Assembly: GCA_963828195.1 (NCBI GenBank)
Contig: CAWHDT010000007.1
Coordinates: forward strand, 64,001 to 128,000
Direction: 5' to 3'
Origin: Candidatus Bathyarchaeota archaeon
Lineage (GTDB): Archaea > Thermoproteota > Bathyarchaeia > Bathyarchaeales > Bathycorpusculaceae
Length of the DNA: 64,000 bases
Both the position numbers and the translations under genes were made by a program. The notes below the pieces were generated by a model. It made no database searches. It saw only the letters and a program-made list of their open reading frames with translations, and had not been told where the DNA came from. This document shows positions 45,681 through 60,410 of this stretch, one piece after another (the stretch's first letter is position 1; the number at the start of each line of letters is the position of its first letter).

Positions 45681-46235
45681 TTAAGTGCCTAAAGATGTTG
45701 ATGATGCTTGAACGTTTGTCTCTGTGTAGTATGCTGCGTCTGCGGTGAAGACTGTGAGGGATATCGTTGTGCCTATGTCTGCTGTGGAAACACTGCCTGG
45801 AGCAACCATCCAAACGTTGATAGACTTGCCTGAATCCAACACTATGGGGCCGCTAGTTGTTTGGTATTTGCCTGTTGCGTTAGTGACAAACGCCGCAGCT
45901 GATACAGCTGATATGTCTGCACTAGGTGTCCCCGTTGACGTATAACATGTGCCCGTGAAAGATGGCTGTCCGCGCACTTCGATCTGGTTGATAACTACGT
46001 CGCGTCCGCCAGTATTAGATATCACAATCCCAGCTACTGCATTACCGTCCGAGTCACACCAAATGTGAGCAAAGTTAACTGTTACACTTTCTGTCTGAAC
46101 CCTGGTGCTGACAACGTTGATAGCAAAGTAAGTAACGACGCCTGCAAGAAGCACTGAAACGACAAGAATGATTAGCGTAGTAATGACTGTACTAAGAGCC
46201 AAACGATTCTTCATCAATTTATGCATATTTATCAT
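45681..46235 (-). CDS. Major type IV pilin/archaellin-like protein A
   Basis: MKNRLA|LSTVITTLIILVV class III signal; NTGGRDVVI. Confidence 0.8.
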   Translation of the reverse strand: MINMHKLMKNRLALSTVITTLIILVVSVLLAGVVTYFAINVVSTRVQTESVTVNFAHIWCDSDGNAVAGIVISNTGGRDVVINQIEVRGQPSFTGTCYTSTGTPSADISAVSAAAFVTNATGKYQTTSGPIVLDSGKSINVWMVAPGSVSTADIGTTISLTVFTADAAYYTETNVQASSTSLGT

Positions 46236-47070
46236 TTTATTTTTTAACTCCGTTGAAAAAGCTTACGCGTTTTCGGGATAAGTAAACTTGTGCGTAAAAA
46301 AAAATACACATCTGACAAAAAAACGCAAGGAGAAACATAACAACAAGAAGGAAAACAGAAGAATAATGTCACTTAAAATATTTCTTCAAAAATAGAAAGA
46401 ACATGGGGGAAGAGAGGGATAATCTCTTGTTTGGTTAAGCTAAAGATGTTGATGATCCTTGAACGTTTGTCTCTGAATAGTATGCTGCTTGAGCTGTGAA
46501 GACCGTGAAGGATATAGTTGTGCCTATGTCTGCTGTGGAAACACTGCCTGGAGCAACGATATAAACTTGTTCGCATCCGCCTGACGCTAACACTATAGGA
46601 CCAGTTGTTAGACCTTCGGCTGCAGTTTTAGCCTTTAATGCGGTTTGTGTCATAGATGATAAGTCTGCGCCAGGTGTGCCTGCTGAAGCAACTACGGTGT
46701 CTGATGGGAATATTGGTTGCCCTCGCACTTCAATTTGGTTGATAACTACGTCGCGTCCGCCAGTATTAGTTATCAAAAGCGCACCTACGGCGTTACCGGC
46801 TGAGTCAACCCAAATGTGAGCAAAGTTAATTGTTACACTTTCTGTCTGAACCCTGGTGCTGACAACGTTGATAGCAAAGTAAGTAACGACGCCTGCAAGA
46901 AGCACTGCAACGACAAGAATGATTAGCGTAGTAATGACTGTACTAAGAGCCAAACGATTCTTCATCAATTTATGCATATTTATCATTTTATTTTTTAACT
47001 CCGTTGAAAAAGCTTACGCGTTTTCGGGATAAGTAAACTTGTGCGTAAAAAAAAATACACATCTGACAAA
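46059..47070. repeat. Direct repeat, two 261-bp copies (46059-46319 and 46810-47070)
   Basis: Only two mismatches seen by eye; covers 84 bp of upstream sequence plus the first ~59 codons of pilins A and B. Confidence 0.92.
46435..46986 (-). CDS. Major type IV pilin/archaellin-like protein B
   Basis: Paralog of 45681..46235. Confidence 0.8.
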   Translation of the reverse strand: MINMHKLMKNRLALSTVITTLIILVVAVLLAGVVTYFAINVVSTRVQTESVTINFAHIWVDSAGNAVGALLITNTGGRDVVINQIEVRGQPIFPSDTVVASAGTPGADLSSMTQTALKAKTAAEGLTTGPIVLASGGCEQVYIVAPGSVSTADIGTTISFTVFTAQAAYYSETNVQGSSTSLA

Positions 47071-47162
47071 TTCAAAAGAGAAAAAAATTCAGTGCATATT
47101 TTAGGTGAAATGAAAAGAATTGAGAGGGGTAATATCCTCCCGTAAGTTCTTCGATTTTTGGA

Positions 47163-47750
47163 TCATGTGCCAGTATATGCTTGGACGTTTGTTTCTTTGT
47201 AGTACATTGCTTGTGCTGTGAAGACTGTCAAGCCGACTGTTAAGCCTATGTCGTTGAGCCCGACGCTGCCTGGTGATAGGATGTAGACGACCGTGGTGTC
47301 GCCTGAAGGCAGTACTAAGCTGCCCGGAGATGCAGCTAGTGGGTTGTTAAAGGTTCCTACGGTTGCAGTGGCAAGTGTTGGGCCAGTGAGGGTGTCCGTG
47401 TATGCTAAGCCTTGGTTTAAGTTATCAGCTGTAACTGCCATAAGAAAGAATACGCTTGTGCATGGTTGTCCAAGTACTTGAATTTGGCTGATGACTACGT
47501 CGCGTCCGCCAGTGTTAGTGATCATCATTGCGGCTTCAACGGGACCGGTTGCTGTGGTTGAAGGCACCCAAATGTGGACGTTTGAAACTGAGACACTTTC
47601 CTGTTGAACCCTAGTGCTCACTACGTTTATGGCAAAGTAAGTTACTACACCCGCAAGCAGTATTGCTACTACTAGGATTATGAGTGTAGTGATTACCGTG
47701 GCTAGCGCGTAACGGTTTTTTAAGAGCCGCCTTATTGTTAAGTGGATCAT
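47163..47750 (-). CDS. Major type IV pilin/archaellin-like protein C
   Basis: LKNRYA|LATVITTLIILVV; NTGGRDVVI; more divergent paralog. Confidence 0.8.
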   Translation of the reverse strand: MIHLTIRRLLKNRYALATVITTLIILVVAILLAGVVTYFAINVVSTRVQQESVSVSNVHIWVPSTTATGPVEAAMMITNTGGRDVVISQIQVLGQPCTSVFFLMAVTADNLNQGLAYTDTLTGPTLATATVGTFNNPLAASPGSLVLPSGDTTVVYILSPGSVGLNDIGLTVGLTVFTAQAMYYKETNVQAYTGT

Positions 47751-50266: not shown

Positions 50267-50578
50267 ATGGATAATTTTATTCCTGTTTTAGAAGAAAAAG
50301 AGTTGCAAGAAGGTACAATGAAGCTTGTGTCAGTTGAAGGGTGCCCAATTTTACTGGTTAAGCAGTCTGGCCAAATTTTTGCTATCGATAACCGCTGTCC
50401 ACACATGGGCTGTGCTTTTTCAGGCGGGTCCCTTGATGGTTTCGTAATTGTTTGCCCCTGTCACGATTGGCGCTTTGATTTGAAAACAGGTGAGTATGAA
50501 GATGAGCCGTCAATAAAACTAAAATTTTACGAGTGGAAAATTGAGTCTGGCAAAATCTGGATAAAACTCGAAGAATAA
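50267..50578 (+). CDS. Rieske [2Fe-2S] ferredoxin
   Basis: NRCPHMG...VCPCHDWRFDLKTG; no signal peptide. Confidence 0.92.
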   Translation: MDNFIPVLEEKELQEGTMKLVSVEGCPILLVKQSGQIFAIDNRCPHMGCAFSGGSLDGFVIVCPCHDWRFDLKTGEYEDEPSIKLKFYEWKIESGKIWIKLEE

Positions 50579-50590
50579 ACTTAAGGACCA

Positions 50591-51523
50591 CTAATCTGCG
50601 GCGCATGAGATAGCTTCATTTTTGAACTGATATTTTTTGCAAAATTCCCAGAAAGCTTCGGATTCTTTGAGAAGCGGCATTTTTGGTCGTACCATGTATA
50701 GTTTTCTTGGGCTTTTCGCTTCCTTAATTTTAAGTATTTTTACTAAGCCTGCGGCTTGAGCTTTATTTGCGGCGATTGAGGAGATTATGCTTATTCCGCG
50801 TCCTTCTGAGACAGCGGTTATCACTGATTCGGTGCTTCCAAGCTCCAATCCGATCCCTAACTTTTCCAAGGGGAACTTGTTATTTTCAAAAAAGCGTTCA
50901 ATCTCTTTTCTAGTTCCAGAAGTTTCTTCACGGCTGATGAAAGGAAAGCTGATAATTTCAATTAGCTTAACCGATTCTTGCTTGACTAATTCGTGATTGC
51001 AGGGGACAATTAGAACCAGTTCTTCTTCGCCGATTTCGATAGTATCAAATTTTTCTTCATACCTTAATATTGTCCCAACTGCTGCGAAATCCACATCCTT
51101 AGCTTGCAAGCTTTGAAGGCTTGTTATACTGTCTTGCGCTTTTATCTTAAATCGTATGGCAGGATGCTTTTTTTGAAATCCAGCGATTAAACTGGGAATT
51201 ATATGTTCTCCAGGTATGGTGCTCGCGGCAATTTTTATTGTTCCTGACATGTTTTGTTTAGCCGAGGAGATTTTTGCTTTTGCGTCCTGGGCTTCTTGAA
51301 GTATTTTTTCCGCGGCTTCTTTAATGGTTGCTCCTGCTTCGGTGACGTCTACGCCGTTACCTGAACGCTGGAATAATGCTGCATCGAAGTATGCTTCTAA
51401 TGCCGCTATGTGGTGGCTGACTGTGCCTTGGCTTGTTCCAAGTTCTTTAGCTGCTGTTGAGAAACTACGTGTCCGCGTTACTGTGAGGAATGTTTTGAGA
51501 TAGTCGAACCTTATGGTTTCCAT
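50591..51523 (-). CDS. LysR-family regulator (CysL-like / selenium-metabolism-associated type)
   Basis: SFSTAAKELGTSQGTVSHHIAALE; AASTIPGEH; REETSGTR; ELGSTESV. Confidence 0.9.
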   Translation of the reverse strand: METIRFDYLKTFLTVTRTRSFSTAAKELGTSQGTVSHHIAALEAYFDAALFQRSGNGVDVTEAGATIKEAAEKILQEAQDAKAKISSAKQNMSGTIKIAASTIPGEHIIPSLIAGFQKKHPAIRFKIKAQDSITSLQSLQAKDVDFAAVGTILRYEEKFDTIEIGEEELVLIVPCNHELVKQESVKLIEIISFPFISREETSGTRKEIERFFENNKFPLEKLGIGLELGSTESVITAVSEGRGISIISSIAANKAQAAGLVKILKIKEAKSPRKLYMVRPKMPLLKESEAFWEFCKKYQFKNEAISCAAD

Positions 51524-51648
51524 GTGTGCTACAACCTCATTTGCATTGTTATTCTTCGTTAGAATGTTTATATGTTATTTGTTTTGATAGAAAACGCTTA
51601 TATTAGTTTTTTTAATAACTGCTATTCAGTAAGTTGAGGTTGAATGAC

Positions 51649-51999
51649 ATGGCAACATTCACATTAATAATATATGAAGCTCCATACGCAAAAGAACGAG
51701 CGCTATCAGCTTTAAGGTTCGCATGGACCTGCGACGTGGAAGGTCACAAAGTAAGAATTTGGCTGTTTGAAAACGGCGTATATCTAGCCAAGAAAGGACA
51801 AAAACCTGCTCAGGGCTTAACCAATTACGGCCAAATGCTTGAAGACTTAATGAAAGGCGGCACCGAAGTGAAAGCCTGCGTCGTCTGCGTAGACGCCCGT
51901 GGCTTAACGCAACCTGACTTGATTGATGGGGTAAAAATCGCGACCGTTCATGAACTTGTTGAGTGGACAGTTAACAGTGACAAAGTCATCGTGTTTTAG
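51649..51999 (+). CDS. DsrE-family sulfur-relay protein
   Basis: EAPY..ER..ALRFA, ENGVY.AKKGQ, ACVVCVDARG. Confidence 0.88.
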   Translation: MATFTLIIYEAPYAKERALSALRFAWTCDVEGHKVRIWLFENGVYLAKKGQKPAQGLTNYGQMLEDLMKGGTEVKACVVCVDARGLTQPDLIDGVKIATVHELVEWTVNSDKVIVF

Positions 52000-52232
52000 T
52001 GACTATTTTGGACATTGAAAGGTTGGATGTTAAAGGGAAAATGTGCCCCATGCCTGTGGCGTTTACTAAGCGGAAGCTTGAAAGCATGGCTTCAGGGCAG
52101 TTGCTTGAGGTCGTAGGTGAAGGGGAATTGGAGTTTGACAATATTCAGCGTTGGGTTAAGAATAATGGGCATGAGGTTGTTGAGGCGGCTAAGTCTAGTG
52201 CGGAGTTCAGGGTGTTGATTAAAAAACACTGA
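51999..52232 (+). CDS. TusA/SirA/YedF-family sulfur carrier
   Basis: LDVKGKMCPMP, GQLLEV, GHEV. Confidence 0.9.
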   Translation: MTILDIERLDVKGKMCPMPVAFTKRKLESMASGQLLEVVGEGELEFDNIQRWVKNNGHEVVEAAKSSAEFRVLIKKH

Positions 52233-52312
52233 TTTCCCATCAATTTTTCTAATATTGCTTATCAATAATTTTAATAATCAGCGACTGCACACCTTCCCAA
52301 GCAGTGATCACA

Positions 52313-53599
52313 ATGACTGAAAAATATGTTGAAATGTGGAAAAACCTCGGAATGGACATCGAAAGACACAACCAACTCCTAAACGGTCTAGGCCAATATT
52401 ACACAAACACAGTATTATCCCAAAAAAACAGACCCAAAAAAATGGATTACTTCGACTTCGTTGTCTCTGAAGTTCACGGTTTAAGAATCAAAGAACTCAA
52501 CGACCTAAGAGAACAGGGAAAGAAAGTGGTGGGCGCATTTTGCATTTACGCACCCGAAGAAATAGCTTACGCGGCAGACGCAACAATGGTCGGGCTATGT
52601 GGAGGGGCAGACTTCTCAGTTCCCGACGCCGAAGCCGTTTTACCCCGAAACCTTTGCCCACTCATAAAGTCATTTTACGGCTTCAAACTAAACCGCACCT
52701 GCCCATACTTCCAGTCCAGCGACCTCGTTGTAGGAGAAACAACTTGTGACGGCAAAAAGAAAGTCTATGAACTCTTAAACGAGCTTGTCCCAACCTACGT
52801 ACTTGAAGTTCCGCACAAACCTGACACGGCTCAAGGCAAAGCTTTCTGGTTTAAAGAGTTAGAAGCCTTTATGGTTGAAATGGAGAAGCTTACAGGCAAC
52901 AAGATAACGGCAAAAAAACTAAAAGAAGCCATAGAACTCATAAACGACAAACGCAGAGCCCTCAAACGTTTATCCGATTTACGTGCAAATTCGCCCTCGC
53001 CAATCAGCGGGTTAGACGGCTTGCTTATTGACCAAATAGGCTTTATGGATGACGTTAAACGTTTCACTTCTAAGGTGAATGAGCTCTGTGATGAACTGGA
53101 TCAGCGCGTTTCTAAAGGTGAAGGAGTGGCAGACAAGGACGCACCCCGAATAATGATTTCAGGCTCTCCCATGGCGGTTCCCAACTGGAAAGTGCACAGC
53201 ATTGCTGAGTCTCTTGGCGCAACGGTGGTTGCCGAAGAAAGCTGCGTGGGAACAAGATACTTTACTGATTTGGTGGAGCCCAAGGGCGAAAACTTGAAGG
53301 AGATGCTTTGGGCTATAGACGAAAAATACTCCAAAATCCCCTGCGCCTGCTTCACACCAAACAACCGACGAATAGAAAGCATTACCCAGCTTGCAAAGCA
53401 ATTCAACGTAGAAGGCGTAATCTACTATACACTTCAAAACTGCCATGACTACAATGTTGAAGGTGTCAAAGTAGAGCGAGCACTCAAAGCCCAAGACCTG
53501 CCGATGCTGAAGATCGAAACCGACTACACAATGGGTGACTCTGAACAAATCAAAACCAGAATTCAAGCCTTCATGGAAATCCTGCAGGCAAAAAGGTAA
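52313..53599 (+). CDS. Double-cubane cluster protein (DCCP; 2-hydroxyacyl-CoA dehydratase-like reductase)
   Basis: FCIYAPEE, GLCGG, PRNLCPLIKS, CPYF, ETTCDGKKK, EESCVG, CACFTPN, QNCH, IETDY. Confidence 0.85.
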   Translation: MTEKYVEMWKNLGMDIERHNQLLNGLGQYYTNTVLSQKNRPKKMDYFDFVVSEVHGLRIKELNDLREQGKKVVGAFCIYAPEEIAYAADATMVGLCGGADFSVPDAEAVLPRNLCPLIKSFYGFKLNRTCPYFQSSDLVVGETTCDGKKKVYELLNELVPTYVLEVPHKPDTAQGKAFWFKELEAFMVEMEKLTGNKITAKKLKEAIELINDKRRALKRLSDLRANSPSPISGLDGLLIDQIGFMDDVKRFTSKVNELCDELDQRVSKGEGVADKDAPRIMISGSPMAVPNWKVHSIAESLGATVVAEESCVGTRYFTDLVEPKGENLKEMLWAIDEKYSKIPCACFTPNNRRIESITQLAKQFNVEGVIYYTLQNCHDYNVEGVKVERALKAQDLPMLKIETDYTMGDSEQIKTRIQAFMEILQAKR

Positions 53600-53707
53600 C
53601 CAAACCTTTTTCCACAATTTTTATCTTTAAATATTTTCAAACCATTGGAAATATGTTAGCATTGTTTCTCGGAACGCCAAAGAAACGTTAGGTTTGGAGG
53701 AAACAAG

Positions 53708-54727
53708 TTGACTTACAGGTTAACTAAAGCAGTTCCAGTTCATGGTTGCAGCTGCAAGCTTCCGCAGTACCAACTGGGCATGTTGTTGGATAAAGCTGGT
53801 TTAACAGCTGATTTCGGCGAAGAGGTCTTGGCTGGTCCTTGGGAAAACGCGAGCGTTGTAAAAATCGCTGATGGAATCGTCGTTTTGAACACGCTTGATT
53901 TTTTTACGCCTATGGTTGATGAACCTGAAATTCAAGGCAGAATTGCGGGAAGCAACGTTACCAGCGACATTTATGCTTTGGCTGTTACCAAGATTGTTAG
54001 CGTTTTATCTATCCTGGCTTTTCCCGAGAACATGCCTGCCGAGTTAGCTGTGGGCATGCTGAAGGGGTTTGGAGATTTTTGCCGAGAAATGGGTGCACCC
54101 GTGGTTGGGGGACACACGATTCGGAATCCTTGGCCAATCATCGGCGGTGCTGCGACTGGTGTGGGTGACCCAGAAAAAATCGTTTATACTCGTGGAGCCA
54201 AAGTTGGTGACCGATTATTTTTGACCAAGCCGCTGGGGATTGCGCCTGCAATGGCTGCGTACAGGCTCAGGAAAGAGGAAGAAGGACAAGAATTGCTAAA
54301 AGAGGTTCCAGAAGAACTGATCGAAGCAGCGGTTGATGAAGCCATTGAGGGAATGATTAGTTCTAATAAGCCTGTTGCTGAAGCGATGCAGAAGGTTCCA
54401 GTTCACGCCGCCACTGATGTGACGGGCTTCGGTCTCAAGGGCCATGCTGGAAACATGGCAGTGCTGGGTAAAGTTGACATCGTTATTAATCAGTTGCCAG
54501 TTATCCGCGGAACCCCATTTTTAGCGGAAATTTTTGGTTACCCGTTGCTGCAGGGCGAGGCGAAAGAAACGGCTGGTGGAATGCTGATTGCCGTGGCTAA
54601 AGAGAACGTCGATGCTTTGCTGGAAGAGTTAGATAAGCGTAAGGTTAGGCATTTTGAAGTCGGCTGCGTCACCGAAGGCTGCGGGAATGTTAACGTAGTC
54701 AAAAACGCGAAAGTCATAGAAGCGTAA
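53708..54727 (+). CDS. selD: Selenide, water dikinase (SelD family), Cys form
   Basis: RLT...HGCSCK, DFFTP.VDEP, N..SDIYA, GGHT, LTKPLG, TDVTGFGL.GH, ETAGG. Confidence 0.88.
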   Translation: MTYRLTKAVPVHGCSCKLPQYQLGMLLDKAGLTADFGEEVLAGPWENASVVKIADGIVVLNTLDFFTPMVDEPEIQGRIAGSNVTSDIYALAVTKIVSVLSILAFPENMPAELAVGMLKGFGDFCREMGAPVVGGHTIRNPWPIIGGAATGVGDPEKIVYTRGAKVGDRLFLTKPLGIAPAMAAYRLRKEEEGQELLKEVPEELIEAAVDEAIEGMISSNKPVAEAMQKVPVHAATDVTGFGLKGHAGNMAVLGKVDIVINQLPVIRGTPFLAEIFGYPLLQGEAKETAGGMLIAVAKENVDALLEELDKRKVRHFEVGCVTEGCGNVNVVKNAKVIEA

Positions 54728-54797: not shown

Positions 54798-55127
54798 GTG
54801 TGTGCTTTGAGCTATGCGATTAAGCTTTGGATGGTCAACGAAAAGAATGAAGCAGTTTTCGGCGATGGTTTAGCTGAATTGATAGAGGAAATTGATAAAT
54901 ACCATTCGATATTGGCGGCTGCAGAGAACATGCACATGTCTTACCGGTATGCGCTGCATCGGATTACTTTGGCAGAGGAACGGCTTGGTCAACTGCTGGT
55001 TACCCGGGTCCGCGGCGGAGCCAAGGGCGGGGGATCTTCGGAGGTTACTGATTTCGGTCGAAATTTAGTTAAGCGATACCGAAATGCTCAAGCGGAGCTT
55101 GACAAAATACTTAAAAAAATGCCATAA
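54798..55127 (+). CDS. ModE-family winged-helix regulator (DNA-binding domain only)
   Basis: FGDGLAEL..ID..SILAAA..M.MSYR...RGGAKGGGS. Confidence 0.85.
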   Translation: MCALSYAIKLWMVNEKNEAVFGDGLAELIEEIDKYHSILAAAENMHMSYRYALHRITLAEERLGQLLVTRVRGGAKGGGSSEVTDFGRNLVKRYRNAQAELDKILKKMP

Positions 55128-55232
55128 ACTGCTATGTAATGTTTTCAAGCGACGGCTGGCTGGCGCATTTTTGCAAATTTTTTCATTATTTTTTGTCCAG
55201 TGCTTTTTGTTTCCAAGAAATGTTTATAACAT

Positions 55233-55258
55233 TCGATATTACTGATTGATAACATCGA
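55233..55258. promoter_or_regulatory. Candidate ModE operator
   Basis: TCGATATTA-N8-TAACATCGA inverted repeat (8/9) between a TTTATA box and the modA start. Confidence 0.5.
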
Positions 55259-55263
55259 GAAGG

Positions 55264-56124
55264 ATGAAAATGAACAAAAAATATCTCGCTACTGCATTAA
55301 TAGTCATAATAATTGTAGCTGGAGCAGTTGGCTATCTAGCATACAACGGAACATTCTCGGCTAAGAAACCCTCTCTGATAGTTTTCGCAGCATCAAGCAT
55401 GACTAACGTCATCGCCAACATGACCCAAGCATTCGAAAACGCAAACAACTGCAAAATAGTGGTTAACTCCGCCTCATCAAGCACCTTAGAAACACAAATC
55501 ACTTCGGGCTCACCATGCGATGTCTTCATGTCAGCTAACAACAAATGGAACGTAGCGCTAGATACTGCTGGACTTCTGTACCAAAACTACTACGATAATT
55601 TCACGACAAACAGCCTTTGCATCATAGTGGCGGCAGGAAACCCGAAAAACATCACCTCAATGGCAAGTTTAGTTAACCCTGGGGTAAGACTAATTGTGGC
55701 AGACGCGTCGGTTCCTGTAGGTGAATACGCAAACGACACCGTTTATAACATCGCGGCAACATGGGGCAACGCTAGCAGCCCACTTTACGTTACCTCAGGC
55801 GCTTACCTAAATTACCCAACAAAGTTTGCGGCAAACGTGGTTTCCTATGAAGACACCGATGAAAACATAGTTGGAGACGTCTCCCTCAACATAGGCCAAG
55901 CTGACGCAGGCATAGTATTTTACTCTGACTGGGCATACGGCAACATGACGGGCGCTCAAGTACAGTTCATTCAAATACCTAACTCTGTAAACACTGTCGG
56001 CAATTACGGCATATGTATTCCCAGCGAAGCAACTCACATAGCTTTAGCGCAAACGTTCGAGAATTACTGGCTTTCATCACAGGGACAAGCACTGCTCACG
56101 CAATTCGGGTTCGGAACCACCTAA
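55264..56124 (+). CDS. modA: Molybdate ABC transporter substrate-binding protein
   Basis: VFAASSM, SSSTL..QI..G...DVFMSA, SVPVGEYA, ADAGIVF.SD. Confidence 0.9.
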   Translation: MKMNKKYLATALIVIIIVAGAVGYLAYNGTFSAKKPSLIVFAASSMTNVIANMTQAFENANNCKIVVNSASSSTLETQITSGSPCDVFMSANNKWNVALDTAGLLYQNYYDNFTTNSLCIIVAAGNPKNITSMASLVNPGVRLIVADASVPVGEYANDTVYNIAATWGNASSPLYVTSGAYLNYPTKFAANVVSYEDTDENIVGDVSLNIGQADAGIVFYSDWAYGNMTGAQVQFIQIPNSVNTVGNYGICIPSEATHIALAQTFENYWLSSQGQALLTQFGFGTT

Positions 56125-56180
56125 AAGTGCATATAAGGCACTCCTCACCCTTTTTTTAACTAATTAACCAGCGTGAAATA

Positions 56181-56999
56181 TTGAAACGTACCTTCCGTAA
56201 TTCGTTTTCAGATAAGTTTGTACTGGTAATTCTGGGTCTAATAGTATTAACCTATTTTCTTTTTGTTGCTATTCCGATAATTGGGATCTTTTTGAAAATC
56301 GATCCGGGCCAAGTCAACGCCCAACTGCATAACTCTGCGATAATAGACGCCATACAACTTAGCTTATTTACATCAGGTTCGGCGACCTTGATTGCTTTTG
56401 TCTTAGCCGTGCCAACAGGTTATTTCATGGCGACAAGGAATTTCCCTGGGAAAGCAGCCCTTGATACATTGATGGATTTACCCATCTTGCTGCCGCCTGC
56501 AGTTGCAGGCATAGTGCTGCTGTATGCTTTCGCGCCAAAAGGGATCTTGGGACCCGTATTCAACCGACTGGGATTAATTATTCCGGGAACCACAATAGCG
56601 GTTATTATTGCTGAAACTTTTGTGGCGTCTCCGTTTCTTTTAAGAGCTTCCAAAACTGGGTTTGAAAACATGGATAAAGATATCATTAATAGTGCAAAAA
56701 TGTTAAGCGGCTCCCGTCTTAGGGTATTCTTTACAATCACTTTTCCATTATCAATTCGAGCAATAATTTCTGGGACGATTGAGACGTGGGCAAGAGCTAT
56801 GGGTGAGTTTGGTGCAACGTTAATGTTTGCTGGAAACCTGCCCGGTATAACGCAGACGATGCCTCTTGCAATATATGTGCTGCTGTATTCTGATCCGTTA
56901 GGAGGCGTCATGTTAGCCATTATCTTAATCATCATCGCATTTTCAATACTTATAGCCGTCCGGCTGCTAACACAAAAAAGGTTCGGGCTCAAAAAATGA
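56181..56999 (+). CDS. modB: Molybdate ABC transporter permease
   Basis: DLPILLPPAVAG, WARAMGEFGATLMFAGN, TQTMPLAIY. Confidence 0.92.
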   Translation: MKRTFRNSFSDKFVLVILGLIVLTYFLFVAIPIIGIFLKIDPGQVNAQLHNSAIIDAIQLSLFTSGSATLIAFVLAVPTGYFMATRNFPGKAALDTLMDLPILLPPAVAGIVLLYAFAPKGILGPVFNRLGLIIPGTTIAVIIAETFVASPFLLRASKTGFENMDKDIINSAKMLSGSRLRVFFTITFPLSIRAIISGTIETWARAMGEFGATLMFAGNLPGITQTMPLAIYVLLYSDPLGGVMLAIILIIIAFSILIAVRLLTQKRFGLKK

Positions 57000-58102
57000 T
57001 TGAAATTGATTCAATCACTAAGTCATTCGCAGAAAAAAAAGTTATAGAAAACTTAAATCTCAAGGTAAAAAACGAAGAAATACTGTCTTTACTTGGGCCC
57101 AATGGGTGCGGAAAAACAACTCTCCTAAACATTCTTTCAGGATTAACAAAACAAGATGAAGGCAACATTTACATTAATGATATCTTAGCAAGTGGAAAAA
57201 CAGGCACAAAAAAAGTTCACCTTAAACCATCAGACAGAAAAGTTGGATATGTCTTCCAAACCACATCGTTGTTTCCACACATGCGAGTTCAAGACAACGT
57301 GGCATACGGGTTGAAAGCAATGCATTTATCCGAGCAAGAAGTTAAAAAAAGAAGCCAAAGCCTGCTCGAGTTTGTAGGCCTTAGTGAATGCGCAAAGTTT
57401 TATCCGCATCAACTAAGCGGCGGGCAAAAGCAGCGCATTGCATTGGCAAGGTCATTAGCTACTGAACCGCAAGTGTTGCTTTTAGATGAGCCGGTTTCTG
57501 CTGTTGATCCTCAATTGAGGGAATCTTTCAGGCTGGAACTCAAAAACTACCTGCAAGCGCTCAAAATCACAGCAATTTACGTGACTCATAATTTGTCTGA
57601 AGCATTCATAATGTCAGACAGGATAGCGGTGATGGGTAACGGGCGCATAGAACAAATAGGTAACCGTACAGAAATTTTTGATAAGCCCAGTTCATCATAC
57701 GTCGCCAATTTTCTAGGAATTAACACGTTCAAAGGCAAAGCTGTTAAAACCCGCGCAAATCTCTTAGAAATTGATGTAAATGGTATGCTACTGTTGGCAC
57801 CTCAAGCGCCTGAACTGGTGGGAAAAGATGTAATTGCGACAATTAAGCCTGAAGATATTACGCTTTCAAAACCAGGTGATACCAATTTTAATGATGCATC
57901 AAGCAATTCAGTTGAAGGCGTGATAACTGAGATGGTTCAAATGAGATCAAACGCCCAAGTCACCATAGATGCAGGCTTCCTTTTAAAAACAAGAGTTTCT
58001 TTAAGCTCAATTAAGAGTTTAGGGCTCAACTTAGGAGACAAAGTCCACGTGCGTTTCAAAGCTGACGCCTTAAATGTTTTTGCGGATAGCGACAACAGAT
58101 AA
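56996..58102 (+). CDS. modC: Molybdate ABC transporter ATP-binding protein with TOBE domain
   Basis: GPNGCGKT, LSGGQKQR, LLLDEP; C-terminal TOBE. Confidence 0.85.
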   Translation: MIEIDSITKSFAEKKVIENLNLKVKNEEILSLLGPNGCGKTTLLNILSGLTKQDEGNIYINDILASGKTGTKKVHLKPSDRKVGYVFQTTSLFPHMRVQDNVAYGLKAMHLSEQEVKKRSQSLLEFVGLSECAKFYPHQLSGGQKQRIALARSLATEPQVLLLDEPVSAVDPQLRESFRLELKNYLQALKITAIYVTHNLSEAFIMSDRIAVMGNGRIEQIGNRTEIFDKPSSSYVANFLGINTFKGKAVKTRANLLEIDVNGMLLLAPQAPELVGKDVIATIKPEDITLSKPGDTNFNDASSNSVEGVITEMVQMRSNAQVTIDAGFLLKTRVSLSSIKSLGLNLGDKVHVRFKADALNVFADSDNR

Positions 58103-58624
58103 TTACTCAATATCAAAGGTTAAGCTTTTTTTCTCAACTAAATCAGCGAGCTCCATCGCCTGCGTTAAGCTTTTAACCATCGGAACTTTAAACCCTACAG
58201 CTTTCCCAATTTCCTCTTCAGACTCCATTATTAACCCTGAAATCGCCACAGTTAAGCCGCCCAAGTATTCTTTTGCTTCCGCGGCGGTTTTCGCAGCGAT
58301 AATTTTAGGCAGTTTTTTCTCCGATTCAAAACCCTCCAAAATAATGTAATCAACGTCTTTGAAGAAGGGTAAAACCTCTTTTACGCTGAGCCTTTTTTTT
58401 ACGAAAATTACGGTTTCGCGTCTTGGAATAGCCGCTATTATTTCTGCTCCGGCAGTTGTGTACCTGTCGGTTTCAGTGGCTGGTGTATCTAAAGTTGGGA
58501 TGCGAACCATCTCTTTGATTGCTCCAACATGGTATCCGCGGCGTTTAAGCTCAGCAGTTAAGTGCTCAATCACCGTGGTTTTTCCCGAATGCTTTCCTCC
58601 GACGACAGCAACAAGTTTTGGCAT
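58103..58624 (-). CDS. mobB: Molybdopterin-guanine dinucleotide biosynthesis protein B, copy 1
   Basis: GGKHSGKTT, IILEGF; IKEM replaces the usual IKH. Confidence 0.8.
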   Translation of the reverse strand: MPKLVAVVGGKHSGKTTVIEHLTAELKRRGYHVGAIKEMVRIPTLDTPATETDRYTTAGAEIIAAIPRRETVIFVKKRLSVKEVLPFFKDVDYIILEGFESEKKLPKIIAAKTAAEAKEYLGGLTVAISGLIMESEEEIGKAVGFKVPMVKSLTQAMELADLVEKKSLTFDIE

Positions 58625-58732
58625 AGCCTGCACCGCTTAAGCTGTAGAGGGTAGAATGAGCATATATTGTTTAATGCGTAAAACACAAAAAAGTAAGGCG
58701 CAATTTTTAAAGCTAAGCAAATTGACTGTCAA

Positions 58733-59314
58733 ATGGAGCGTGAATCCGGTACGGTTTTAGTTATTGCCGCGGTCGGCGTAAGCGGTTCAGGAAAAACAGT
58801 GACCTTAGAGTATTTAATTTCTAGTCTTTCAGCGGAAGGCTACAGTGTGGGTTCAATAAAGCATGTTCACCACAAGGGTTTCACCATGGATAAAGTTGGC
58901 ACTAACACCTGGAGATACGCTCAGGCAGGCTCCAAAGTGATCGTGGCGATTTCACCTGAAGAAATAGACATCATCAAGAAAACTCAGATGGCGCTCAACG
59001 ATTTGGACCAAATAATCGCCCTGCTGGAACAGGAGAAACTTGACGTCGTTTTCATCGAAGGCTTCCACAGTTTAATCGCTAAAAGGCAAGACGTACCCAA
59101 AATTATCACTGCCAAAGACCAAACTGGGCTTGAGCAAACTTTGGAAGGGACGGTTCAGCCGATTTTGGCGATCGCGGGCATCGTAGCCGAAAACGCTGGC
59201 AGCCCAACCTTCAAGGACATCCCAGTGATTAAAGTTCCCCAAGACGGACAAAAACTCATTGAACTAGTCAAAAAACAATTAGAAAAGGCAAACGCATCAA
59301 AAACTGGTAACTGA
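58733..59314 (+). CDS. mobB: Molybdopterin-guanine dinucleotide biosynthesis protein B, copy 2
   Basis: GVSGSGKT, IKHVHH, FIEGF. Confidence 0.88.
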   Translation: MERESGTVLVIAAVGVSGSGKTVTLEYLISSLSAEGYSVGSIKHVHHKGFTMDKVGTNTWRYAQAGSKVIVAISPEEIDIIKKTQMALNDLDQIIALLEQEKLDVVFIEGFHSLIAKRQDVPKIITAKDQTGLEQTLEGTVQPILAIAGIVAENAGSPTFKDIPVIKVPQDGQKLIELVKKQLEKANASKTGN

Positions 59315-59324
59315 GGAAAACGCC

Positions 59325-60410
59325 ATGACTAAACGGGCTGCACTTATTTTGGCAGGGGGAAAAGCCCGCAGATTCCAGTCAAAAAATGGGACGTGGGAAG
59401 ACAAAGCCCTCGCTGAACTTTCAGGAAAACCACTTTTAATTCACGCCATCGAAAACGTTCAAAGCGTCGTTGACGAAATTGCAATATGTGTAAACGACCA
59501 AGAGCGCAAGTTTCAATATTCCCAAATCCTAAAAAAACATGCTATATCAAACGTTCAAATCGTGATCGATGAAAAAAATCGCATCAGCGGTCCCACAGTG
59601 GCAATTATGTCGGGGTTAAAGTCTGTTCACGCAGATTATTGCCTTACTTTTCCCTGCGACATGCCCTTTCTGCAATCATCTGTTGCGGATTACTTGCTTA
59701 GTGAGGCGGAGGGTTTCGAGATCGTTACTCCAATGTGGCCTAACGGCAGGCTTGAAACTCTTTTGATGGTGCTTAAGAGGCATAGCGGCTTAGAAATAAC
59801 CAGCACATTGTGCAAGTTGAATCGCCCGCGCTCAGACGATATACAAAGGGGTGCCTCCAAAATACTGTTTGCGTCTCCAGTTAACCATATTAAAACACTT
59901 GACCCAGAACTCAAAAGCTTCATCAACATCAACCTTAAAGAAGACCTCAGCAGGCTGCAGACCCGCCATAGTCACGGCGCCGTCACAGAAAACCTCCAGG
60001 TAAACTTGGGTGTTTCATCAAGTTCCGATTTGCAGCTTCTTCGGAAGGGCGCGGAAATGTTGAATGAAGGCAAATTTTCGGAGGCGCAGACCATTTTTGG
60101 TTCATGTACCAGCAACTTTGAGGTTTCTAACAGCTTTTTCTGGGCAGCAGTAAGCGGGGAAAACCAAGGTGAAGCACTTCTAAAGTTGTCTTTGCAGCAA
60201 ATTGAACCAGATGCAGCTACGAAATCAGATTTTGAAGGCAAAGAAGCTTTTCAGAGGGCTGCAAACAATTATCGAGTAGAGGCTGAATTACACGAAAAAA
60301 ACCGTTGCTGGCTGCTGGCTGAACGCGCATTAGGTGATAAAGCATGGTGCGAGTCATGGGTTATGGGAAAACACAGTCACGTTCACAGGTACCCATCTAA
60401 AGCTTTGTGA
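59325..60410 (+). CDS. mobA: Molybdenum cofactor guanylyltransferase with C-terminal helical extension
   Basis: LAGGKARRF...DKAL, CDMPF, FININ..EDL. Confidence 0.85.
   Translation: MTKRAALILAGGKARRFQSKNGTWEDKALAELSGKPLLIHAIENVQSVVDEIAICVNDQERKFQYSQILKKHAISNVQIVIDEKNRISGPTVAIMSGLKSVHADYCLTFPCDMPFLQSSVADYLLSEAEGFEIVTPMWPNGRLETLLMVLKRHSGLEITSTLCKLNRPRSDDIQRGASKILFASPVNHIKTLDPELKSFININLKEDLSRLQTRHSHGAVTENLQVNLGVSSSSDLQLLRKGAEMLNEGKFSEAQTIFGSCTSNFEVSNSFFWAAVSGENQGEALLKLSLQQIEPDAATKSDFEGKEAFQRAANNYRVEAELHEKNRCWLLAERALGDKAWCESWVMGKHSHVHRYPSKAL

Follow-up and report, generated by a model that had tools for sequence, protein, structure and literature searches.

The window analysed here, a 64,000-nucleotide stretch of a Candidatus Bathyarchaeota archaeon genome (C7:64001-128000 of genome G000), carries a LysR regulator gene divergent from a run of four genes that encode a DsrE-like and a TusA-like small carrier, a type-A double-cubane cluster protein (DCCP) and SelD. 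Family affinities, conserved linkage and loci of relatives that lie in selenocysteine (Sec) islands support the earlier proposal that the five genes form one selenium-related module. The new point, judging from genome sequences, is that the genus of this archaeon appears to retain SelD and the carriers without any known selenium trait. We read the module as an island for selenium uptake, carriage and activation, in which DCCP would reduce or free selenium before SelD and the product would feed Sec synthesis in this genome, the likeliest of the readings considered, which we hold about as probable as not.

Identification of the module genes

Genes were identified from Pfam and NCBIfam profile scores against curated cut-offs, in an assembly of 2.83 Mb (9 contigs, 96% complete) whose host is described as a soil archaeon. 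The list of open reading frames (ORFs) and the family models agree on the arrangement given in a preliminary description of this DNA, with LysR (positions 50591-51523 of the window, reverse strand) divergent from DsrE (51634-51999), TusA (51999-52232), DCCP (52304-53599) and SelD (53708-54727), all on the forward strand. The five ORFs contain no internal stop, and thus no in-frame TGA, as had been stated. The window also holds no tRNA of any kind; aragorn placed the three tRNAs of contig C7 outside it.

The regulator (PF00126 and PF03466) was assigned to the selenium-associated LysR subfamily (LysR_Se, or HrsM, type), with a marginal score of 259.8 bits against a cut-off of 250 on NF040786, "selenium metabolism-associated LysR"; the LysR of the sister genus g21 scored 251.9 bits on the same model. 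The DsrE/YchN-like carrier (PF02635, 81.3 bits) has a C82-x-x-C85 motif, and E. coli YchN (1JX7, E = 6e-19) is the most similar protein of solved structure; the true start of the gene is likely the ATG at 51649, which is conserved across 15 aligned loci. The TusA-like carrier (PF01206, 68.8 bits) has a C16-P-x-P active-site motif and fits the YedF model better than the TusA or TsuB models. Its top NCBIfam match, YedF PRK11018, was nevertheless below the cut-off (49.1 bits versus 79), as was a second YedF score (36.3 versus 110 bits), and DsrE reached only E = 0.009. Moreover, YedF is one protein with an N-terminal TusA/SirA part and a C-terminal DsrE part, whereas here the two are separate genes, DsrE preceding TusA. 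The pair can thus be regarded as a split and reordered counterpart of YedF, as far as profile scores and gene order indicate, and not as members of that family.

DCCP scored 500.7 bits on NF040772 (cut-off 350) and matched PDB entries 7YYL_C and 6ENO_A across residues 7-424 (E = 2e-151). All seven cluster cysteines are present (Cys 80, 99, 118, 148, 314, 347 and 380), with spacings of 18, 18, 29, 165, 32 and 32 versus the published 19, 18-19, 29, 166-170, 32-34 and 32, two being off by one. Its true start is likely the ATG at 52313, database homologues having 428 amino acids. SelD, the only copy over the cut-off in this genome, is a Cys form of the archaeal/eukaryotic type (NF010705, 343.2 bits versus a cut-off of 291; TIGR00476, 233.7 versus 125), with human SPS1 (3FD5) as its best solved relative. 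It carries the motif H-G-C14-S-C16-K17, with the N-terminal Sec/Cys position and the Lys of the glycine-rich loop, which by analogy with E. coli SelD is the catalytic site; position 14 is a TGA in genome G068 and in other genera.

Conservation of the module in Bathyarchaeia

Conservation was followed in 81 genomes of the genus (g1, including this one), 47 of them of high quality; these genomes belong to related species and are not independent, and some are incomplete. Matches were accepted at E <= 1e-30 for SelD, E <= 1e-95 for type-A DCCP and E <= 1e-5 for SelU. Type-A DCCP was found in 36 of the 81 genomes (20 of the 47 high-quality ones), of which 35 also have SelD, the exception being G018 (88% complete). 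In 32 of the 36, DCCP lies directly 5' of SelD on the same strand (exceptions: G068, G006, G017 and G018) and, because the arrangement recurs to this extent, it is not due to chance.

Locus maps were drawn for 20 loci from 19 genus genomes. The full arrangement, LysR followed divergently by DsrE-TusA-DCCP-SelD, was present in all ten mapped genomes that had been picked for having DCCP, and DsrE-TusA-SelD alone was present in seven of the eight picked for lacking it, the eighth having SelD alone. LysR was divergent from the operon in 14 of the 20 genomes mapped. In G068, which is Sec-positive, LysR-DsrE-TusA-DCCP stands separately and a Sec-form SelD lies beside PSTK-SelB. In five relatives, the next gene after SelD, in the same direction, encodes PhoU and AbrB domains (L046:11135-12190, L047, L056, L057 and L059) and is itself followed, on the opposite strand, by an NfnAB/SudAB-like pair; this insert is absent from the present genome.

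In a class-wide sample of 301 Bathyarchaeia genomes from 107 genera, SelD was found in 19 genomes of six genera, and five of the seven SelD genes outside g1 contain an in-frame TGA. SepSecS and PSTK-SelB are neighbours of these genes in g21 and in three further families of Bathyarchaeia. The cluster of G297 (g21) comprises a split YedE, a second TusA, a YjeF_C-like gene, DsrE, TusA, DCCP, an activase and a Sec-form SelD, with LysR divergent and SepSecS alongside, and G309 (g21) has the same cluster. G312 has PSTK-SelB and LysR on one side and DsrE-TusA-SelD-SepSecS on the other; G191, from a distant family, has SelD-DCCP-activase divergent from PSTK-SelB-SepSecS; and in G039 and G131 SelD lies beside PSTK-SelB-SepSecS. 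The regulator gene, too, adjoins SepSecS or PSTK-SelB in g21. From these layouts across the wider Bathyarchaeia, we conclude that the ancestral setting of the module was a selenocysteine island.

The split YedE and the second TusA also occur within g1, in G008 and G067, so that a split YedE was seen next to the module in four genomes in all (G008, G067, G297 and G309). Its halves scored 80-89 bits on seleno_YedE, versus 22-35 bits on the TsuA models. Within the genus, YedE was present in 4 of the 81 genomes, all with SelD and all of high quality (4 of 47). An unsplit, full-length YedE in G052 (C106:622-1617, 477.6 bits), as opposed to the split form of G008, G048 and G067, may have been acquired by transfer or may stem from contamination during binning.

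Selenocysteine machinery on contig C3

The preliminary description had regarded SelD as an orphan. For this genome that view is refuted by contig C3, which carries a tRNA-Sec (aragorn; 65.8 bits versus 47 on the Rfam model), SepSecS (481.7 bits versus a cut-off of 224.85), a PSTK-SelB fusion of 753 amino acids (C3:95214-97475, reverse strand) and, a few kb from this machinery, an 834-codon gene for an HdrA-MvhD (FlpD) fusion (C3:103951-106458, reverse strand). The PSTK-SelB fusion scored 276.3 bits on the SelB model (cut-off 242.25) and 153 bits, below the cut-off of 290.5, on the PSTK model. The HdrA-MvhD gene has two in-frame TGA codons at conserved Cys positions, and its product is very likely, from its sequence, a protein with two selenocysteines. 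Overall, the genome combines tRNA-Sec, PSTK, SepSecS, SelB and SelD with a gene containing in-frame TGA, the archaeal Sec-decoding trait. PSTK-SelB fusion and selenocysteine in Bathyarchaeota have already been described, as the accessible text of PMC9499178 indicates. In G068, the same PSTK-SelB fusion was observed directly after the Sec-form SelD (L064:10743-12941).

HdrA-MvhD was the one real case among the six candidates, out of 1443 from a TGA read-through scan, that were run through Pfam. The other five were rejected as adjacent genes in the same frame, one of them a hydrogenase large subunit ending in its normal C-terminal motif. No SelU, YqeC or YqeB was found in this genome. The preliminary description had named two findings that together would speak against it, a Sec pathway elsewhere in the genome and a lack of SelD-DCCP linkage in other genomes; the pathway was found, and the linkage is nevertheless conserved.

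Retention of SelD without a known selenium trait

The idea of an orphan SelD, which fails for this genome, holds for most of its congeners. SelD was detected in 56 of the 81 genus genomes (33 of the 47 high-quality ones), whereas SepSecS was detected in six and tRNA-Sec in the same six (two of 47 in each case). SelU (TIGR03167) was found in none of the 81 genomes at E <= 1e-5, a threshold at which the M. jannaschii control was detected, and YqeC was found in none of them either; YqeB, which was searched for in the present genome, was not found there. TIGR04348, presumably the selenoneine enzyme SenB, exceeded its cut-off in none of five good genomes. As a result, no classical selenium trait was found in 50 of the 56 genomes with SelD, including the single-contig genomes G014 and G067. 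Titles and the opening parts of abstracts contained no report of orphan SelD in Bathyarchaeia, although supplements beyond reach might list such genomes.

Among the congeners, G062 has Sec markers and a broken SelD. G156, from another Bathyarchaeia family (97% complete), has a lone Cys-form SelD (C3:281741-282745, L161) and no SepSecS, and is a second, independent case of orphan SelD.

In the Sec-less genomes, the module is kept under purifying selection. The median ratio of nonsynonymous to synonymous substitution rates (dN/dS) was 0.11 for LysR, 0.08 for DsrE, 0.10 for TusA, 0.08 for DCCP and 0.06 for SelD, and ranged from 0.04 to 0.19 in the nearest Sec-less pairs for all five genes. The functional residues were also retained: SelD C14 in 18 of 19 loci (all but G068, which has a TGA at this position), SelD C16 and K17 in 19 of 19, the C-P-x-P motif of TusA and C82 and C85 of DsrE in 18 of 18, and all ten DCCP cysteines, including the seven of the cluster, in 11 of 11. 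The 23 Cys-form sequences of the genus group together in the SelD tree as a single clade (support 100), next to which branch, as its sister, the Sec-form SelDs from G068 and g21. The Cys-form clade includes a subclade of 13 genomes in which no member has a Sec marker and whose internal divergence is deep.

Could the module in Sec-less species be a remnant, now in decay, of a selenocysteine trait that has disappeared? Broken copies of SelD or DCCP do exist in G011, G087, G063, G062, G060, G078 and G016; in G011 (C3:58629-61050), for example, adjacent DCCP and SelD genes contain 15 and 14 stops. Loss of the module occurs without being the rule, and the low dN/dS values in the closest Sec-less pairs, the intact catalytic residues and the deeply divergent 13-genome subclade make the relic explanation a disfavoured one, which we consider extremely improbable.

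The module might instead handle sulfur in Sec-less species, with TusA and DsrE relaying persulfide and SelD making thiophosphate or having some other role independent of selenium. TusA and DsrE belong to families of classical persulfide carriers, a SelD-like family has been proposed to act in the sulfur metabolism of Crenarchaeota (PMC9312934, accessible text), and the classical selenium traits are all missing from these genomes. However, SelD matches its model at equivalog level and scored just 40 bits on the sulfur-type model NF038049; it retains C14 and K17; the Cys-form clade arose from Sec-form SelDs located in Sec islands; and the affinities of YedE, YedF and LysR are of the selenium type. 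A sulfur module therefore seems quite unlikely.

A broader proposition is that SelD serves, in this genus, a use of selenium that has yet to be described and that involves neither selenocysteine, selenouridine nor YqeB/YqeC. A single change of SelD from Sec to Cys would have been followed by loss of the Sec machinery in most species, while LysR_Se, DsrE, TusA and SelD, often with DCCP, were kept under purifying selection. We hold this proposition tentatively, as somewhat less probable than not.

Promoter-like elements

A putative promoter/operator was located 5' of DsrE (51597-51626, forward strand) by alignment of 15 LysR-DsrE spacers; it consists of a TATA-like element, TTATAT, and, after it, an AT-rich dyad, AT(C/T)A(A/G)-N6-7-TAATAA. 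In a genome-wide scan with a position weight matrix (PWM), this site scored 38.5 bits and the sole other match, inside an ORF, 20.0 bits. A second AT-rich region, with two tandem ATCA(A/G)-N6-TAATA boxes, was found in the TusA-DCCP spacer (52238-52278, forward strand) from an alignment of 11 spacers, and the PWM of its box had no match in the genome besides its own site. The DCCP-SelD spacer contains a T-run and then a TATA-like element. Both boxes are putative operators, and the layout of the spacers suggests that DCCP forms a cassette under a promoter of its own, regulated in the same way as that of DsrE. No further LysR_Se target was found genome-wide with the two PWMs or with a degenerate box pattern, which gave 9 matches versus 13.5 expected.

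DCCP paralogues, activases and bacterial relatives

The present genome has only two BcrAD_BadFG activase genes (C3:169292-170943), which follow a DCCP paralogue (C3:168128-169252). This type-B paralogue scored 330.5 bits, just under the cut-off, is 37% identical to the DCCP of the window, and was found in 23 of the 24 genus genomes searched, with or without SelD. In the sister genus g21 (TIGR00241, 288 bits) and in G191, an activase is encoded in cis. A third DCCP type, 48-50% identical and forming its own clade, was observed in G006 (L165), G018 (L167) and G017 (C18), with no SelD or activase nearby in the loci examined.

Among bacteria, 80 loci around the nearest non-Bathyarchaeia DCCPs were searched with the window proteins. 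Of the 37 Collinsella-type loci, 35 have SelD no more than 10 kb from DCCP, in the order DCCP-DCCP-activase-SelD, but SelD is this close in only 3 of the other 43 loci, of which 39 had an activase match. Four bacterial SelD matches that were checked are true SelDs (270-345 bits). The linkage of SelD and DCCP, whose conservation the preliminary description proposed to test, is thus shared by g1, g21, one distant family of Bathyarchaeia, Collinsella and a small number of further bacteria. SelD adjacency requires at least five changes on the DCCP tree; the linkage recurs, in a lineage-specific way.

This distribution bears on two explanations of the role of DCCP. In the first, DCCP has an unrelated catalytic role, and is co-located and co-regulated with SelD only through a selenoprotein-dependent pathway or shared anoxic conditions. 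The Haft 2022 preprint, in its accessible part, deems dependence at the level of a pathway the likelier kind of explanation, and most of the near bacterial DCCPs are indeed accompanied only by an activase. On the other hand, type-A DCCP lies by SelD in 28 genomes without Sec markers, and hence without selenoproteins, and its gene is inserted between those of the carriers and SelD, preceded by a box of the DsrE-promoter type. We therefore find a catalytically unrelated DCCP quite improbable.

In the second, DCCP is itself the acceptor: selenium derived from SelD would replace the bridging sulfide of the [Fe8S9] cluster, making the module a self-contained maturation system. This is the boldest form of the undescribed selenium use proposed above. 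The accessible part of the Haft 2022 preprint mentions a selenium-bridged cluster as formally possible and reports 955 of 970 DCCPs in genomes with SelD. An acceptor role would also account for SelD in the 28 genomes where DCCP and SelD are adjacent without Sec markers, and only one of the 36 genomes with type-A DCCP, the 88% complete one, lacks SelD. Nevertheless, 20 of the 50 Sec-less genomes with SelD have no type-A DCCP, the type-B paralogue occurs in genomes without SelD, the module encodes no selenium-transfer enzyme, and the solved DCCP cluster is all-sulfur according to the accessible text of Jeoung 2022 (PMC9351452). Selenium-bridged DCCP is, on this evidence, unlikely.

Molybdenum genes and other neighbours

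A block for molybdenum/tungsten (Mo/W) uptake and cofactor synthesis lies 3' of SelD in the window (54798-60410) and comprises ModE-N, ModA, ModB, ModC, two MobB and MobA; in some relatives, the block also contains a Mo domain protein of the sulfite-oxidase type and MoeA (L055). Mo genes were found within 4 kb 3' of SelD in 10 of 20 genomes (the 19 mapped and this one), and all ten belong to the sub-clade nearest this genome. Because it is confined to that sub-clade, the Mo neighbourhood is effectively one event.

The preliminary description had offered a Mo cofactor as a possible target, and the corresponding explanation would be delivery of selenium or sulfur to a Mo or W cofactor, that is, a selenium-dependent molybdoenzyme trait without YqeB/YqeC. 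Besides the neighbourhood itself, it is favoured by the co-occurrence of SelD with a xanthine-dehydrogenase-family protein in all nine genus genomes that have the latter (9 of 81; 5 of the 47 high-quality ones). That family is nonetheless far rarer than SelD (9 versus 56 of 81 genomes), YqeC and YqeB gave no match in the searches described above, and the link comes down to synteny within one sub-clade. As a general explanation the Mo link was rejected, and delivery to a Mo or W cofactor is very unlikely. In the present genome, the xanthine-dehydrogenase-family molybdoprotein is encoded at C3:427319-428026; the other eight cases are in other genomes of the genus.

Two other features of the window were observed. 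A small Rieske [2Fe-2S] protein (50267-50578, forward strand) is encoded tail-to-tail with LysR, and a Rieske gene also occupies this place next to the module in 14 of 19 mapped genus genomes and in both DCCP-bearing g21 loci. In addition, three tandem paralogues on the reverse strand (45681-47750; 184, 183 and 195 amino acids), with a near-identical hydrophobic N-terminal segment, look like archaeal pilin-type proteins with a class III signal, to judge from that segment.

A proposed selenium supply route

In the supply route that we favour, LysR_Se would control DsrE, TusA, DCCP and SelD. Selenium would enter the cell, in some relatives through the split YedE of the same cluster, would be held on DsrE and TusA as perselenide, and would be brought to the selenide level. 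A strong reductant is needed to convert selenium to selenide. DCCP, as an ATP-driven reductase of very low potential, may free or reduce oxidised, elemental or carrier-bound selenium before SelD, driven in trans by the two C3 activases encoded beside its paralogue. SelD would then turn selenide into selenophosphate, which in this genome would be passed, by way of SepSecS, PSTK-SelB and tRNA-Sec, into selenocysteine and thus into the two-Sec HdrA-MvhD. Jeoung 2022 (PMC9351452), in its accessible text, gives the physiological function of DCCPs as unknown, and reports that neither dithionite nor Ti(III) citrate reduces the cluster and that its reduction requires the ATPase of DCCP.

We infer a cargo of selenium, and not of sulfur, because of the NF040786 match of LysR, the affinity of TusA for YedF, the seleno_YedE scores and the Sec-gene neighbours in relatives. 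The gene identities, the conserved linkage, the purifying selection and the Sec machinery are established, whereas the order of the steps and the reaction of DCCP are proposals. The extended gene order, YedE-YedE-TusA2-...-DsrE-TusA-DCCP-(activase)-SelD, which runs from transporter to kinase, speaks for the route. A predicted complex of TusA with DCCP and SelD gave a median score of 0.27 versus a mark of 0.32, which is no evidence either way.

Several observations weigh against the supply route. The operon contains no cognate activase, YedE was not found in this genome, the regulator is only 10 bits above its cut-off, and SelD is rare near the nearest bacterial DCCPs outside the Collinsella type. 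DCCP is also dispensable, since 21 of the 56 genomes with SelD lack type A and seven of the eight examined keep DsrE-TusA-SelD. Moreover, gene order does not fix the direction of flow, because it varies by lineage, with SelD first in G191. Finally, a supply model leaves the sink open, as 50 of the 56 congeners with SelD have no known consumer of selenophosphate; this missing sink in Sec-less species keeps the rival explanations alive.

Two questions meet in this module, namely the cellular role of DCCPs and the purpose of SelD in organisms without a known selenium trait. In bacteria, the association of DCCP with selenium is known as a correlation only. This archaeal lineage amounts to a natural experiment, with dozens of species that have or lack DCCP, have or lack the Sec machinery, and in which SelD and the carriers are under selection. 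An acceptor, if found, would define a further selenium trait, and if DCCP were a selenium reductase or a selenium-containing enzyme, this would be the first physiological role for the family.

Comparison with known systems

The preliminary description had presented the system as undescribed, yet several of its parts are already in print: LysR_Se/HrsM, YedF-type carriers by SelD, the co-occurrence of DCCP and SelD, and the selenium-bridged double cubane. In the parts of these sources that were accessible, Lin 2015 defines YedF, YedE, whose archaeal form is split, and LysR_Se, which in archaea is HrsM and has subfamily-specific residues that include a conserved proline of the effector domain. 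It also reports YedF as absent in archaea, and in its Table 1 the selenium-gene neighbourhood of Slackia includes an activase and subunits of 2-hydroxyglutaryl-CoA dehydratase. The Haft 2022 preprint built NF040772, and the legend of Fig. 5 in Kountz and Balskus 2023 places DCCP, DCCP-R and a "selR" regulator in selenium clusters. The module is therefore an archaeal version of a known but uncharacterised association of DCCP with selenium.

With the DCCP/DCCP-R system of Carboxydothermus hydrogenoformans (6ENO, 7YYL), the DCCP of the window shares full-length homology, the seven-Cys motif and NF040772; it differs in having no adjacent ATPase gene and in its position between TusA and SelD. The bacterial selenium islands of Slackia and Collinsella, as far as the accessible sources describe them, likewise cluster DCCP, SelD, the carrier families and a selenium-type LysR, together with an activase. 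Here, in contrast, SelD and the Sec machinery are of the archaeal type, DsrE and TusA are separate genes, and the genus has one DCCP, no activase, and an island that is kept in species without selenocysteine. The YedE/YedF pair has in common with the module the TusA and DsrE domains, the CxxC motif in the DsrE part and, in relatives, a split YedE alongside, whereas YedF is a fusion whose domain order is the reverse of that of the window genes, which score below the YedF cut-offs.

Retention of SelD without selenocysteine or selenouridine is shared with the orphan SelD that accompanies YqeB/YqeC (Haft and Self 2008; Zhang 2008; accessible parts), but here YqeC is absent from all 81 genomes, YqeB was not found in this genome and the xanthine-dehydrogenase family is restricted to nine genomes. 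The accessible part of Peng 2016 covers 26 bacterial organisms with orphan SelD, and the neighbour genes proposed there differ from those found here. The regulator belongs to the same NCBIfam family, NF040786, as HrsM of Methanococcus; HrsM is described as a regulator of Cys-isoform hydrogenase operons, whereas the LysR of the window is divergent from a carrier/SelD operon. Finally, SPS1 of insects that lost selenoproteins, reportedly the subject of work by Mariotti in 2015, is said to be another SelD homologue under selection after the loss of selenocysteine; in the present genus, by contrast, the catalytic Cys and Lys are retained, together with selenium-type carriers and a selenium-type regulator.

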